From NCBI RefSeq assembly GCF_000012465.1, contig NC_007335.2, forward strand, positions 1,440,001-1,472,000: DNA of 32,000 nt. The letters are read 5' to 3'. Positions 686 to 7,034 of this stretch are shown piece by piece. Position numbers and translations under genes: made by a program. This DNA comes from Prochlorococcus marinus str. NATL2A. GTDB lineage: Bacteria > Cyanobacteriota > Cyanobacteriia > PCC-6307 > Cyanobiaceae. The notes beneath the pieces were generated by a model, which saw only the letters and a list, made by a program, of their open reading frames with translations, searched no databases and was not told where the DNA came from. Numbering within the stretch: the stretch's first letter is position 1; each line of letters starts with the position of its first letter.

Positions 686-865
686 TTAAATTAAAGGTGA
701 TTTAAAAAAGCCAGGAATAATTTGTCCTGTTGTTGCATATGCGCCAACAAGAGAAGTTATACCAATCATTACCCAACGACCGTTAAATAACTCAGCGGAC
801 GCTGGACTGAACTCATTAACTACGTTGATATAGTTACCAGATTTGGAGGATGATTCTGAATTCAA
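686..865 (-). CDS. hli: high-light-inducible protein (HLIP, one-helix CAB family)
   Basis: C-terminal NGRWVMIGITSLVGAYATTGQIIPGFF is the HLIP signature. The ORF-track start at 937 lies inside the upstream hli. The only plausible start after that gene's stop is TTG at 865-863, overlapping the TGA at 864-862 (tTTGA). This gives about 59 aa. Confidence 0.75.
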   Translation of the reverse strand: MNSESSSKSGNYINVVNEFSPASAELFNGRWVMIGITSLVGAYATTGQIIPGFFKSPLI

Positions 866-1062
866 AAGATACCTGGGATGATTTGTCCTGTTGTGACGTA
901 TGCACCTAGAAGGCTGATCATTCCAATCATTGCCCAACGTCCATTAGTTTTCTCAGCTTCCTTTGGATAGCTTGTATAGTTTTCCACCAACTGTGGAGGA
1001 GTTTCACGAGCAAATATATTTTGCTTGCCGTATTCAGTAATTACCTGAGAAGAAGATGACAT
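862..1062 (-). CDS. hli: high-light-inducible protein (HLIP)
   Basis: 66 aa, ATG start. AEKTNGRWAMIGMISLLGAYVTTGQIIPGIF matches the canonical Prochlorococcus HLIP helix and C-terminus. Confidence 0.9.
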   Translation of the reverse strand: MSSSSQVITEYGKQNIFARETPPQLVENYTSYPKEAEKTNGRWAMIGMISLLGAYVTTGQIIPGIF

Positions 1063-3556: not shown

Positions 3557-3724
3557 TTAAAAGGGAAACTCAGATTTTATCCATAAAGCAGAACTAACTT
3601 TCATAAGTAACCACATTACTAAAGCACCCTCAAGAAAACCAAACCAATACAGGGCATAGTTAGATATCCCCATTTCTTTTTGAGCACGTTCAACAAATGA
3701 TTTATGCCATTTGATCAACTTCAC
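3557..3724 (-). CDS. 55-aa peptide with C-terminal TM helix (below ORF-track cutoff)
   Basis: My own translation from GTG at 3724: VKLIKWHKSFVERAQKEMGISNYALYWFGFLEGALVMWLLMKVSSALWIKSEFPF. TAA at 3559-3557. Confidence 0.3.
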   Translation of the reverse strand: MKLIKWHKSFVERAQKEMGISNYALYWFGFLEGALVMWLLMKVSSALWIKSEFPF

Positions 3725-4031
3725 AATTCATCCATGTAGATAAAATTATTATAGTTAAAAACTGCAAATAATTTTTTTTTAGAATAATGGGATTTCTTAT
3801 TCTTGTAAGAGATTTTTCTAAGCCAAGGAGGCAAGGCTAACGACCTAAAGACGAGCATAATTTTATTTATCATGTATTAATAACTACGAAAATGAGTCAT
3901 ATAAAATTTCTAAAAATATTAATCCAGTAATTCAAACTAATTCAGCAATCTTTGATAGGTATAAAAATACTATTACCTTATTATCAAAAAATGGATGAAT
4001 TGAGATGCATTAAATTATTAGAAGTTAAATA

Positions 4032-4133
4032 TTACCTTGAATAATTCAATCCTCTGTAAGTGAATTTTATTTGAGGCTTTGAGGCTGAATTACAATATAC
4101 AAATGATCTTCCATTAAAATACATGTTGACCAT
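4032..4133 (-). CDS. 33-aa peptide downstream of candidate glutamine riboswitch (possible gifB-like / Downstream-peptide ORF)
   Basis: AAGGAG (4147-4142) lies 8 nt before ATG (4133-4131). The product is MVNMYFNGRSFVYCNSASKPQIKFTYRGLNYSR, with TAA at 4034-4032. Strong SDs are unusual in this AT-rich context. Confidence 0.4.
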   Translation of the reverse strand: MVNMYFNGRSFVYCNSASKPQIKFTYRGLNYSR

Positions 4134-4190
4134 GGTCCTAGCTCCTTAGAAGCGCTCAAGTCCCCGTCCTTTGGCTTGAGTCGAACTGCG
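4134..4190 (-). promoter_or_regulatory. candidate glutamine-II riboswitch (Downstream-peptide motif)
   Basis: Minus strand reads CAGUUCGACUCAAGCCAAAGGACGGGGACUUGAGCGCUUCUAAGGAGCUAGGACC. There is a CUCAAG/CUUGAG helix. The loop GGAC can pair with the GUUC just 5' of the helix (pseudoknot). GUUC...GGACGG resembles the conserved glutamine-aptamer signature as I recall it. The SD follows immediately 3'. Confidence 0.4.
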
Positions 4191-4236
4191 GTCTACGTAA
4201 GCAGATCGGACGATTGAGTAGCAAAAGCTATACACC

Positions 4237-4265
4237 TTTATAGTATTTATACTTATTAATGTCAA
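4237..4265 (-). promoter_or_regulatory. sigma70-type promoter, TTGACA-N17-TATAAA
   Basis: On the minus strand, TTGACA (4265-4260), a 17 nt spacer, then TATAAA (4242-4237). Predicted TSS is near 4230, giving a leader of about 95 nt before the 33-aa ORF. Confidence 0.4.
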
Positions 4266-4319
4266 CACTGGAGATTTTGTCTCTATATGTTTGTCTACCT
4301 CAAGAGAAAAATTACGTGG

Positions 4320-6245
4320 TTACTTTGCTGACTCAGACAACTCACTTAGCTCAATCCATCTATCCTCATACTCTTGAATAGATTCAATTAGTTCTGCTAA
4401 TTGATGACTAATTTCACTAATGTCTACATCATTATCAGTGATCTTTTTTTCTAAATATATTTTCTTTTTTTCTAACATAGGTAGTCTCAGATCTAATTCT
4501 TTTAATTCTCTAGCTTCTTTAAAACTCAATCGTCTAGGATCATTTTTAGAAACTAATTTTATTTCTTGTCCACGCTTATTTTTTGAATTATTGACTATTT
4601 TGGCTCGTTCTTTTGTTTCATTGTTTCGCTCCTCTAATATTTTATGATCAAGAAATCGAGAGTAATTTCCTTCATATCTTCGCAAGTAACCGTTTTCAAA
4701 ATTAAAAATTCGATCAATAGTACGATCAAGAAAATATCTATCATGCGATACAACTACGACACAACCTTTAAAATCATCAAGAAAATCTTCTAGCACACTT
4801 AGTGTTTGTATATCTAAATCATTTGTAGGCTCATCAAGCAATAATACGTTGGGAGCTTGTATGAGCATTTTGCATAGAGCAAGTCTTCTTTTTTCTCCCC
4901 CTGAAAGTTTTTGCAGAGGACTATGTTGTTGACTGGGTGGAAAGAGGAATTTTTCTAAGAGTTGTGATGCTGTAATTTGTTTCCCTCCATGATCAATTCG
5001 TAATGCAGCCTCCTCCACAAAATCGATAACTTTGCGGTTTAAGCCACTCCCTTGATTTAAGTCATTTGTATGTTGATCTAAGTAGCCAATATGAACCGTT
5101 TCTCCAAGTTTTATTTTCCCACTTGTAGGCAATCTTTTACCCGAAATTAGATCTAAAAGAGTGGATTTACCACTGCCATTTGGACCAATAATTCCTACTC
5201 GGTCCTCTGGACTAAAGCTATAAGTAAAATCACATAAAAGATCCAAGTTATTCTCTTTATTGTTGAGCGATAGCCCTACACCTTCAGCCTCAATTGCGAT
5301 TTTTCCAATTCTTCTACTTAATGAATTCATTTCTAAATTAGCTTTGACATGACTTTTAGGTTTCGCTTGCATTTCAGCAATCCGTTGAATACGTGCTTTT
5401 TGTTTTGTACTTCTTGCTTTGGGACCCTGTCTTAACCAAGCTAATTCCTTTCTTAAAACACCCTGAAACTTTTTCTTTGTAGATGCCTCTGATTGCTCTT
5501 GTTCAACTTTTTGTTGAAGAAATTCACGATAATTGCCCGAATACTTGCGAGTTTCTCCATTGTTAATTTCGACCATCCGGTTGGTAATGCGATCAAGAAC
5601 ATATCTATCGTGAGTTATTAAGACCAGCGCACCCTTATAATGGTCTAACCAATTTTGAAGCCATTCCACTGCAGATGCATCTAGGTGGTTAGTAGGTTCA
5701 TCAAGAAGTAAGACATCTGGATTAGAGACAAGCGCAGCGGCAAGTCCCACTCTTTTGCGATAACCACCAGAAAGCTCTTTTACTGGTTTATCTAAGTCTT
5801 TTATACCTAATCTTCTTAGAACATCTTGGCATTGTTGTTCTAAATTCCATGCCTCAGCGGCATCCATAAGTTCACTCGCCTGACCTAGTTTTTTCAAAAG
5901 GTCTTCATCTTCTGGATTTTGAGCGATTTTTCTACTTAGCTGACTGAAATTAAGTAATAATTTTCTTTTTTCTCCACACCCTTCAAGAACTTCTTCCAAA
6001 ACACTTTTTTCACTGTTGTAACTTGTTTCTTGCCCAACTAAAGATATCCGCAAAGATGGTAAACATCTTCTTTCTCCTTCCATCAAAGGTTCTATTCCTG
6101 CAATGACTCTCAAAAGTGTTGACTTGCCAGATCCATTTGGACCAATCAAACCAAGTCTCTCTTTTTTATTTACATGAAGATCTAAATTTTTAAAAAGATT
6201 TTTTATTCCAAAGTCTGTAGAAGCATTAACAAGACTAATCAACAC
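4320..6245 (-). CDS. ABC-F family ATPase (two ABC cassettes, Uup/EttA-like, no TM domain)
   Basis: Two Walker A motifs (GPNGSGKST twice), two signature motifs (LSGGYRKR, LSGGEKRR), two Walker B motifs (LLLDEPTN twice), and a charged coiled-coil C-terminal tail. The start is GTG at 6245 or TTG at 6242. Confidence 0.95.
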   Translation of the reverse strand: MLISLVNASTDFGIKNLFKNLDLHVNKKERLGLIGPNGSGKSTLLRVIAGIEPLMEGERRCLPSLRISLVGQETSYNSEKSVLEEVLEGCGEKRKLLLNFSQLSRKIAQNPEDEDLLKKLGQASELMDAAEAWNLEQQCQDVLRRLGIKDLDKPVKELSGGYRKRVGLAAALVSNPDVLLLDEPTNHLDASAVEWLQNWLDHYKGALVLITHDRYVLDRITNRMVEINNGETRKYSGNYREFLQQKVEQEQSEASTKKKFQGVLRKELAWLRQGPKARSTKQKARIQRIAEMQAKPKSHVKANLEMNSLSRRIGKIAIEAEGVGLSLNNKENNLDLLCDFTYSFSPEDRVGIIGPNGSGKSTLLDLISGKRLPTSGKIKLGETVHIGYLDQHTNDLNQGSGLNRKVIDFVEEAALRIDHGGKQITASQLLEKFLFPPSQQHSPLQKLSGGEKRRLALCKMLIQAPNVLLLDEPTNDLDIQTLSVLEDFLDDFKGCVVVVSHDRYFLDRTIDRIFNFENGYLRRYEGNYSRFLDHKILEERNNETKERAKIVNNSKNKRGQEIKLVSKNDPRRLSFKEARELKELDLRLPMLEKKKIYLEKKITDNDVDISEISHQLAELIESIQEYEDRWIELSELSESAK

Positions 6246-6671: not shown

Positions 6672-7034
6672 ATGAATTTTTTAGAGAGAGTTCTTTCAAA
6701 TTACTTTCTGGCTTGGAGTCAGATTTTTAATTACAAAGATAAAACAAGTAGAATACCTTTTTGGCACTTTTTTATCCTAGATGGATTTATAGGTGCTGTG
6801 GTTTCAATACTATCTAATAATAACCTTGCTAATGACCCAAATGATTTTTATAACATCGCTGAGGGATATGACTGGAGTTATTTTTATAGCATTCCATCTT
6901 TTTTAGTTTTTATAGCTTTATTAATCAGAAGACTGAGAGATATAGGTAAGGAAAACTTAGTTTTATGGGCATTTTGTTCATTTATTCCTTTCTATAATCT
7001 TTATATATTTGCCCAACCTTCCTCTGAAAAGTAA
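6672..7034 (+). CDS. DUF805-like inner-membrane protein
   Basis: FNYKDKTSRIPFWHFFIL followed later by LIRRLRDIGK matches the DUF805 pattern (GRxxRxEFW ... RRLHDxGxSGW) as I recall it. Confidence 0.6.
   Translation: MNFLERVLSNYFLAWSQIFNYKDKTSRIPFWHFFILDGFIGAVVSILSNNNLANDPNDFYNIAEGYDWSYFYSIPSFLVFIALLIRRLRDIGKENLVLWAFCSFIPFYNLYIFAQPSSEK

Follow-up and report, generated by a model that had tools for sequence, protein, structure and literature searches.

Some members of the glutamine-II, or Downstream-peptide, riboswitch family (Rfam RF01704), whose Downstream-peptide alignment comprised 634 RNAs in the Weinberg 2010 paper, have been shown to bind L-glutamine selectively and to control genes in a glutamine-dependent manner (PMC6212724, PMC6698751). 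With a Downstream-peptide leader of strain MED4, GFP rises after ammonium addition (PMC6212724), and a ligand-stabilised pseudoknot was proposed to release the ribosome-binding site (PMC6698751). An NtcA site overlaps the transcription start site (TSS) of the MED4 copy, from which repression was inferred, and the encoded peptides share an LTYRGxxY repeat with the glutamine synthetase (GS) inactivating factor IF17, but the short Prochlorococcus peptides have no C-terminal GS-binding part (Klähn et al. 2018, PMC6212724). TSSs of such copies were mapped ~20 nt upstream of the motif. In MED4 the Yfr6 transcript is a 244-nt RNA with a 33-codon open reading frame (ORF) starting at nt 97, and the antisense RNA Yfr14 starts inside that ORF. 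Here we describe a unit of this family in Prochlorococcus marinus NATL2A. It is located on the minus strand at positions 4032-4265 of the window, i.e., the whole stretch of 32,000 nt that was analyzed (NC_007335.2, 1,440,001 to 1,472,000), in which an earlier note, written by a model from the raw sequence, had proposed a candidate glutamine-II riboswitch preceding a 33-aa ORF. The locus is a genuine Glutamine-II/Downstream-peptide riboswitch.

Identity and architecture of the aptamer

The whole 32-kb window was compared with Rfam 15 (4227 families) by cmscan at the gathering threshold, and a single match was obtained. RF01704 (Glutamine-II riboswitch) aligned at full length (model positions 1-60 of 60) with 4215-4155 of the minus strand, at 56.8 bits, i.e., well above the gathering score of 33 (E = 2.1e-11). 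The assignment to the glutamine-II family is far beyond chance, and the identity proposed in the earlier note was confirmed. A permissive Rfam scan of 3700-4500 gave nothing else credible, and RF01739 (glnA, glutamine-I) had no match in this interval even at E up to 10.

This copy was already on record. One row of the Stockholm alignments published by Weinberg et al. 2010, NC_007335.1/893813-893753, is this aptamer (4155-4215), and window positions 3834-4315 (minus strand) are identical over 482 nt to NC_007335.1 893913-893432 of the Downstream-peptide alignment; the AUG of the ORF occupies the start-codon column of this flanked row. Since the exact locus is in the 2010 alignment, we are dealing with a correct re-discovery and not with a new finding: the motif, its ligand, the crystal structure and this copy are already published. 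The unit had been called unannotated, which holds for protein gene calls, but not for the RNA instance and the ORF, both of which were in the 2010 alignment. The discovery value is small and the residue is one of annotation, in that the 33-aa ORF is uncalled in the assemblies examined; the case shows that a real riboswitch is recognisable by a model from raw sequence.

The aptamer begins with the 5′ strand of a pseudoknot, CGUCC (4208-4212; C1-C5 of the crystal structure, with C here in place of U4), which pairs with GGACG (4165-4169) in the loop of P2. Between them lie the P1 hairpin (4190-4207; pairs G-C, A·C, U-A, C-G, U-A, G·U and C-G, loop UUAC) and, as placed by RF01704 and the crystal mapping, the linking strand GCAGUUCGA (4181-4189; CGCAGUUCGA when C4190 is included). 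This strand holds a GUUC and includes G18 and C19, which in the crystal stack on and bind glutamine. P2 (4155-4180) consists of the helix 4180-4173/4163-4155 and the loop 4172-4164. Its strands CUCAAGCC and GG-A-CUUGAG form 8 bp with A4161 bulged, just as the earlier reading of a CUCAAG/CUUGAG helix with a bulged A had it; that reading was right for the 3′ half of the aptamer, but it left out both P1 (4207-4190) and the 5′ strand (4212-4208). The crystal-mapped nucleotides that contact glutamine and the metal ion (PMC6698751), namely C1, G2, G18, C19, C39, G40, G41 and A33:G42, are all present in the window (4212, 4211, 4189, 4188, 4166, 4165, 4164 and 4172:4163, in that order). As judged from its sequence, the aptamer is complete and looks ligand-competent.

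Covariation and the subclass to which the window belongs

A degenerate pattern of the core, searched with one genome per species, gave at least 120 loci; the set was adjusted by adding the window and one viral contig and by dropping ~8 chance matches in other phyla. Among the matches listed, from genome and viral contigs, ~114 of ~122 were Prochlorococcus or Synechococcus units, and nearly all of these 114 had an ORF ~20-30 nt past the aptamer that encodes M..L(T/I/L)YRG..Y...LTYRG..Y. Three of the chance matches (L036, L046 and L110, all Alphaproteobacteria) share the segment GCAGTTTGA..TTCCA.CGCACGGGCAC and have neither the 5′ CGUUC nor P1; the segment probably represents a single conserved stretch of protein-coding sequence rather than an RNA element.

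The structure tested for covariation was Rfam P1 and P2 plus the pseudoknot of the crystal structure, in an alignment of 98 distinct aptamers. It was 97.4% paired, and changes on both sides were found in 12 of the 19 pairs, in an alignment in which several columns are fixed by the search pattern. None of 500 shuffles reached the observed values of pairing and covariation, and slid controls were only 26-52% paired. P1 was drawn with seven pairs, six of which were counted, since the canonical counterpart of G4207-C4190 is the non-standard A6·C17; all six showed changes on both sides, and 93% of the cells were paired. For P2 the corresponding values were five of eight pairs and 99%, with a compensatory change from C-G to U-A in locus L137, inside the subclass of the window. 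The compensatory changes that the earlier note expected in relatives were thus found in both helices.

The pseudoknot (columns 4-8 with 57-61) was paired in 99.8% of the cells. The one pair that varies, 7-58, reads U-A in 92 sequences; in the other six, which belong to the subclass of the window, it is C-G. The positions U4/G35/A37 of the base triple read U/G/A in 92 sequences and C/A/G in six, with no intermediates, i.e., the G35>A37:U4 triple is replaced as a block by A>G:C and the third base co-varies. The pair of this triple had been singled out as not highly conserved by Huang et al. (PMC6698751). The C/A/G subclass is probably the result of a single evolutionary event. The coordinated change at three positions represents a natural test of the crystal-structure model and could offer a way of asking whether the subclasses of glutamine-II are set to respond at different levels of glutamine.

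A different pseudoknot had been proposed in the earlier note, in which the GGAC of the loop pairs with the GUUC of the linking strand beside P2. This candidate was inferior: it showed no double changes and was broken in 10 of the 98 sequences, and the crystallised RS01 sequence has no GUUC at this site (PMC6698751). The actual partner of the loop is the 5′-terminal CGUCC at 4212-4208, which takes the place of the CGUUC that pairs with a GGAACG loop of P2 in the usual form of the family.

The subclass, a minority within the family, is recognized by the 5′ sequence AAUCGUCC, the loop AGGACGG and a peptide of the form MVNM(Y/F)FNG..FVYC......(L/F/I)TYRG..Y.... Among the matches listed its members were the window, L038, L078, L095, L087/L103 and a degraded locus, L111. 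A metagenome scan added ten more, all ten with CGUCC, and 71 rows of the 2010 alignment carry the subclass sequence CGUC.CGAUCU. We consider it rather unlikely that the subclass, with its A>G:C triple, the G-C pair in place of A6·C17, a consensus Shine-Dalgarno sequence and the MVNMYFNG peptide, is functionally distinct from the canonical class; if it were, it could have a different glutamine threshold and a different peptide target than the canonical LTYRG peptides.

Same-type copies score 57-61 bits on RF01704, L111 only 34.8 bits. The latter copy has lost its Shine-Dalgarno sequence and reads CAUCU in the pseudoknot strand, and its existence in another genome lends some colour to the idea that the window itself holds a decaying, non-functional copy or a chance resemblance. 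With 56.8 bits, all ligand-contact nucleotides, an intact promoter, Shine-Dalgarno sequence and ORF, and a sequence identical across several independent assemblies, the window copy makes this idea very improbable.

L111 comes from a contig of Prochlorococcus sp. AG-402-I20 (QCHY01000002.1) that carries two copies of the unit ~16 kb apart, at L111 25-369 and L103 7197-7541. The L103 copy is intact and lies in a different neighbourhood; in the degraded L111 copy the ORF is still open, and its upstream flank matches the window sequence that follows the ABC-F gene, the locus being too short to reach the gene. This pair suggests relocation of the unit and then decay of the old copy. AG-402-B05, the genome of the closest relative, carries at least three glutamine-II units (L038, L054 and L112) with different peptides, namely MVNMYFNG... 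(33 aa), MAELTYRG...KRIHEAMKAEMG (46 aa) and MSLTYRGLKYNQQK... (33 aa). The 46-aa class ends in a conserved, helical-looking tail and lacks an obvious Shine-Dalgarno sequence.

With respect to phages, no match was obtained when phage genomes were searched with 3980-4270 by blastn, and the subclass-specific pattern had no match in viral contigs; one of the two viral matches of the general pattern, L007, was without an Rfam match. The viral contig L008 (IMGVR_UViG_3300006754_000011) carries at 2264-2325 a Glutamine-II aptamer of 73.8 bits. A 52-aa ORF, MNSLLTYRGVKY..., comes after this aptamer and matches DUF4278 weakly (E = 1.8e-4; 22.2 bits, the Pfam cut-off being 25.3). This is consistent with the reported presence of the motif in cyanophages.

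Expression signals and the 33-aa peptide

Upstream of the aptamer, the minus strand carries the -35 hexamer TTGACA (4265-4260) and, after a 17-nt spacer, the -10 hexamer TATAAA (4242-4237), read as in the earlier note. Both hexamers and their spacing are conserved across all relatives of the subclass. The only reason why a promoter scanner did not list this promoter is that its rule accepts nothing but T as the sixth base of the -10 hexamer. The -35 hexamer lies 55 nt downstream of the end of an ABC-F gene (4320-6245, minus strand), and the patch had correctly been described as GC-rich: the GC content is 0.46-0.47 at 4100-4249, vs 0.20-0.26 at 3850-4099. Within the promoter spacer, the segment GTATAAATAC (4243-4252, minus strand), which contains the short inverted repeat GTAT..ATAC, is invariant across subclass loci, those at other genomic sites included, and its flanks vary. 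A second site for protein binding or an extension of the promoter are possible readings of this segment.

At the predicted transcription start lies an NtcA-type box, ATAGCTTTTGCTAC (4218-4231, minus strand), with one mismatch to GTA-N8-TAC. Among the matches listed, 88 of 117 distinct related loci have a GTA-N8-TAC without mismatch whose end lies 3-8 nt upstream of the pseudoknot strand, and nine more, the window being one of them, have a one-mismatch version. The predicted TSS near 4230 is consistent with the TSSs mapped for the paralogues.

A Shine-Dalgarno sequence, AAGGAG (4142-4147), precedes the ATG (4133-4131) by 8 nt, and the ORF (4032-4133, stop codon included) encodes the 33-aa peptide MVNMYFNGRSFVYCNSASKPQIKFTYRGLNYSR; these positions are as claimed earlier. 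AAGGAG, AGGGAG or AGGGG is found in most same-type loci. The ORF is conserved in six genome loci, with no frameshifts, and in ~9 metagenome loci. Comparison of the window with L095 gave 10 synonymous and 4 nonsynonymous changes in frame, and 0/14 and 1/13 in the other frames, so that synonymous changes dominate in the proposed frame only; by codon position, the variable columns of the ORF number 7/14/20. The ORF is thus kept in relatives with a coding signature, and with 33 codons it also falls within the range of 17-100 codons that the earlier note gave for ORFs behind this motif in marine picocyanobacteria and their phages.

The peptide has a hydrophilic, basic composition and no transmembrane stretch. 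It was compared with other riboswitch-associated peptides in an alignment of 34 sequences (six same-type, 28 canonical), 29 of which match Pfam DUF4278 (PF14105) at E up to 1. Six longer riboswitch-associated peptides match DUF4278 with E = 2e-4 to 4e-12, five of them above the Pfam cut-off. By hhalign, residues 17-33 of the window peptide align to the second LTYRG repeat (87.6%, E = 3.5e-6); the peptide scores 12.1 bits against 8.6 for the best of 2000 shuffles, and all six subclass peptides beat their shuffles. The N-terminal repeat alone had no significant profile similarity. It is partly shown, on these sequence comparisons, that the peptide is a diverged member of the set of riboswitch-controlled small proteins with LTYRGxxY (DUF4278, 'IF17-like'). 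The resemblance of a KPQ..F.TYR stretch to IF7, which the earlier note had offered as weak evidence, hinges on a KPQ that is not conserved, the close relatives having SKSQ, EKAS, EKTS or EEKV; the conserved similarity lies in the LTYRGxxY (DUF4278-type) repeat of the C-terminal half. No entry was found in the PDB for IF7, with a provisional query sequence, or for the peptide profile.

Exact look-up of the peptide in gene-call and protein collections gave none, and six peptide variants were found 0 times in a collection of ~15 billion predicted proteins, in which a canonical 33-aa sister peptide is annotated as a DUF4278 protein; canonical sister peptides are so annotated, unlike the window peptide. 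The assemblies examined have no gene call in the interval that separates the ABC-F gene from its neighbour. This class of peptides is effectively invisible to protein annotation, and MVNMYFNGRSFVYCNSASKPQIK is the peptide sequence to be sought by mass spectrometry or ribosome profiling.

We propose that a sigma-70-type promoter would start a short transcript near 4229-4231, inside the NtcA-type box, and that its ~96-nt leader would fold into P1, P2 and the H-type pseudoknot of the 5′ CGUCC with the GGACG of the P2 loop. Glutamine, as conservation and the crystal structure suggest, would bind to the pseudoknot helix in its major groove and stabilise it. By extension from the GFP-tested MED4 paralogue, this stabilisation would free the strong AAGGAG ribosome-binding site, so that high glutamine would lead to more translation of the 33-aa peptide (an ON switch), and under nitrogen scarcity NtcA would repress transcription. 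To this explanation as a whole, a glutamine-II unit with a translational ON switch, an NtcA-type operator and an IF17-like peptide, we give a probability of about 0.85.

Several observations weigh against it. The MED4 leader tested with GFP is of the canonical class, with a CGUUC strand and an MTLIYRG... peptide, and not of this subclass. Folding gave an accessibility of the Shine-Dalgarno sequence of ~0.4 whether the pseudoknot strands were blocked or left free, and no candidate structure that would sequester this sequence is conserved among the relatives; the non-conserved candidates were a GCUUC-UAA-GGAGC hairpin and a GUCC/GGAC pairing beside the AUG. The putative NtcA box of the window carries ATA where the consensus has GTA. 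On the side of the peptide, the window sequence had no match among Pfam and NCBIfam models up to E = 1, its first repeat reads YFNGRSF, so that the arginine is lost (YFNG for YRG), and it appears to lack an IF7-like region of the kind that binds GS in Synechocystis.

The folding result bears on whether the aptamer might instead be an OFF switch or a transcription attenuator. The states of the expression platform are not separated by folding here, and ON behaviour was measured for one canonical-class leader only, in a heterologous host. We nevertheless find such a switch improbable: no terminator-like hairpin or T-run was found between the aptamer (4155) and the ATG (4133), and the logic of the tested paralogue is ON. 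The ATG lies 21 nt past the end of the aptamer, and because this distance is short, translational control is favoured.

With the translational ON switch retained, the role of the peptide is presumed to lie in the control of nitrogen assimilation, where it may act on GS or on some other target; GS inactivation by such peptides is putative in Prochlorococcus. It is possible, but to our minds well short of an even chance, that the same riboswitch controls a peptide that is not a GS inactivating factor and in which YRGxxY serves as a mimic or decoy of the T-loop of PII (GlnB), or that the peptide has another nitrogen-regulatory target. A decoy was proposed in the supplementary text of Weinberg 2010, where 355 of the 429 downstream peptides were noted to have YRGxxY; one such motif (TYRGLNY) is retained by the window peptide, and Klähn 2018 (PMC6212724) concedes that the Prochlorococcus peptides have no C-terminal GS-interacting residues. 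Against this, a four-residue motif is weak evidence, YFNGRSF in the first repeat means that the motif is not strictly kept, and GS and PII are both putative targets.

Downstream of the ORF no intrinsic terminator was found (MFE, minimum free energy, -0.9 kcal/mol). A run of six Ts at 3986-3991 (minus strand), with no preceding hairpin, is a possible weak 3′ end ~244 nt from the predicted start, and the 3′ untranslated region (UTR) of the unit is unstructured and poorly conserved (46%). Elsewhere, the window has at 686-1062 (minus strand) and 6672-7034 (plus strand) two overlapping or tandem ORFs that resemble high-light-inducible proteins (…NGRWAMIGM…; weak Chloroa_b-bind match) and a gene for a DUF805 membrane protein, all of them ordinary Prochlorococcus content.

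Comparison with described systems

The unit resembles Yfr6 of MED4 and SS120 (Axmann 2005, Steglich 2008) in that a short transcript would carry a Downstream-peptide aptamer in a leader of ~96 nt and a 33-codon ORF whose product closes with LTYRGxxY, and would have an NtcA-type box at its start. The transcript length of ~244 nt that would be shared with MED4 Yfr6 is an analogy only. Yfr6 differs from the window unit in its canonical CGUUCA strand, in its peptide, MTLIYRGQKYVQN... in MED4 and ..LTYRGQKYTQ.. in SS120, and in its genomic site, and the antisense RNA Yfr14 is documented for Yfr6 only.

We considered that the window unit could be the Yfr6 orthologue, given its 33-aa ORF, an ATG ~97 nt from the start and a T-run at ~244 nt. 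This was rejected, since the published Yfr6 probe and primers encode the canonical class: their reverse complements are GTAGCAACMGCTACYAAAACGTTCAAC and ATGACACTTATCTACAGAGGACAAAAATACGTCCAAAAC, the latter encoding MTLIYRGQKYVQN, so that Yfr6 combines CGTTCAAC with MTLIYRGQKYVQN, whereas CGTCCGAT and MVNMYFNG are found in the window. This makes the window unit a paralogue, and Yfr14 and the toxin-antitoxin proposal apply to it by analogy only.

According to that proposal, which was made for the pair Yfr6 and Yfr14 in MED4 (Steglich 2008), the transcript would be the toxin part, with an antisense RNA as its partner, of a type I toxin-antitoxin pair; alternatively, it would be chiefly a regulatory or dual-function RNA. 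In most relatives a -10-like TATAAG on the plus strand lies opposite the L-T-Y codons, but the window has TGTAAG there (4055-4060, plus strand), and the scanner found no plus-strand promoter-like site. Typical type I toxins are unlike this hydrophilic, basic peptide without a transmembrane stretch, the coding signature and the riboswitch explain the conservation, the 3′ UTR is neither structured nor well conserved, and Yfr6 itself is a paralogue at a different locus. Such a role is, in our view, quite improbable for the window unit. On the analogy with Yfr14 one might speculate that TGTAAG reflects an antisense promoter weakened in NATL2A; the difference could also be merely a synonymous Tyr codon.

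We return to the glutamine-controlled small protein, for which a second described system is gifB (IF17) with its glutamine-I riboswitch in Synechocystis sp. PCC 6803 (Klähn 2018, PMC6212724). There, too, an NtcA-repressed promoter is combined with a glutamine-binding leader, and the leader controls a small protein with a DUF4278-type repeat. The aptamer of gifB is of the glutamine-I class (RF01739), whereas that of the window is glutamine-II, and, in contrast to IF17, the window peptide has 33 aa, apparently no IF7-like C-terminal GS-binding region and a score below the DUF4278 model.

The closest relatives are the copies of the RF01704 family itself (Weinberg 2010, Ames & Breaker 2011, Klähn 2018, Huang 2019). 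The window shares with them P1, P2, the pseudoknot and the contact nucleotides, and its 33 codons fit a family that is found in the 5′ UTR of short ORFs (17-100 codons) in a marine picocyanobacterium or phage. Compared with the canonical copies, the window has A>G:C for G35>A37:U4, a G-C pair for A6·C17 and a strong AAGGAG, and nothing essential differs.

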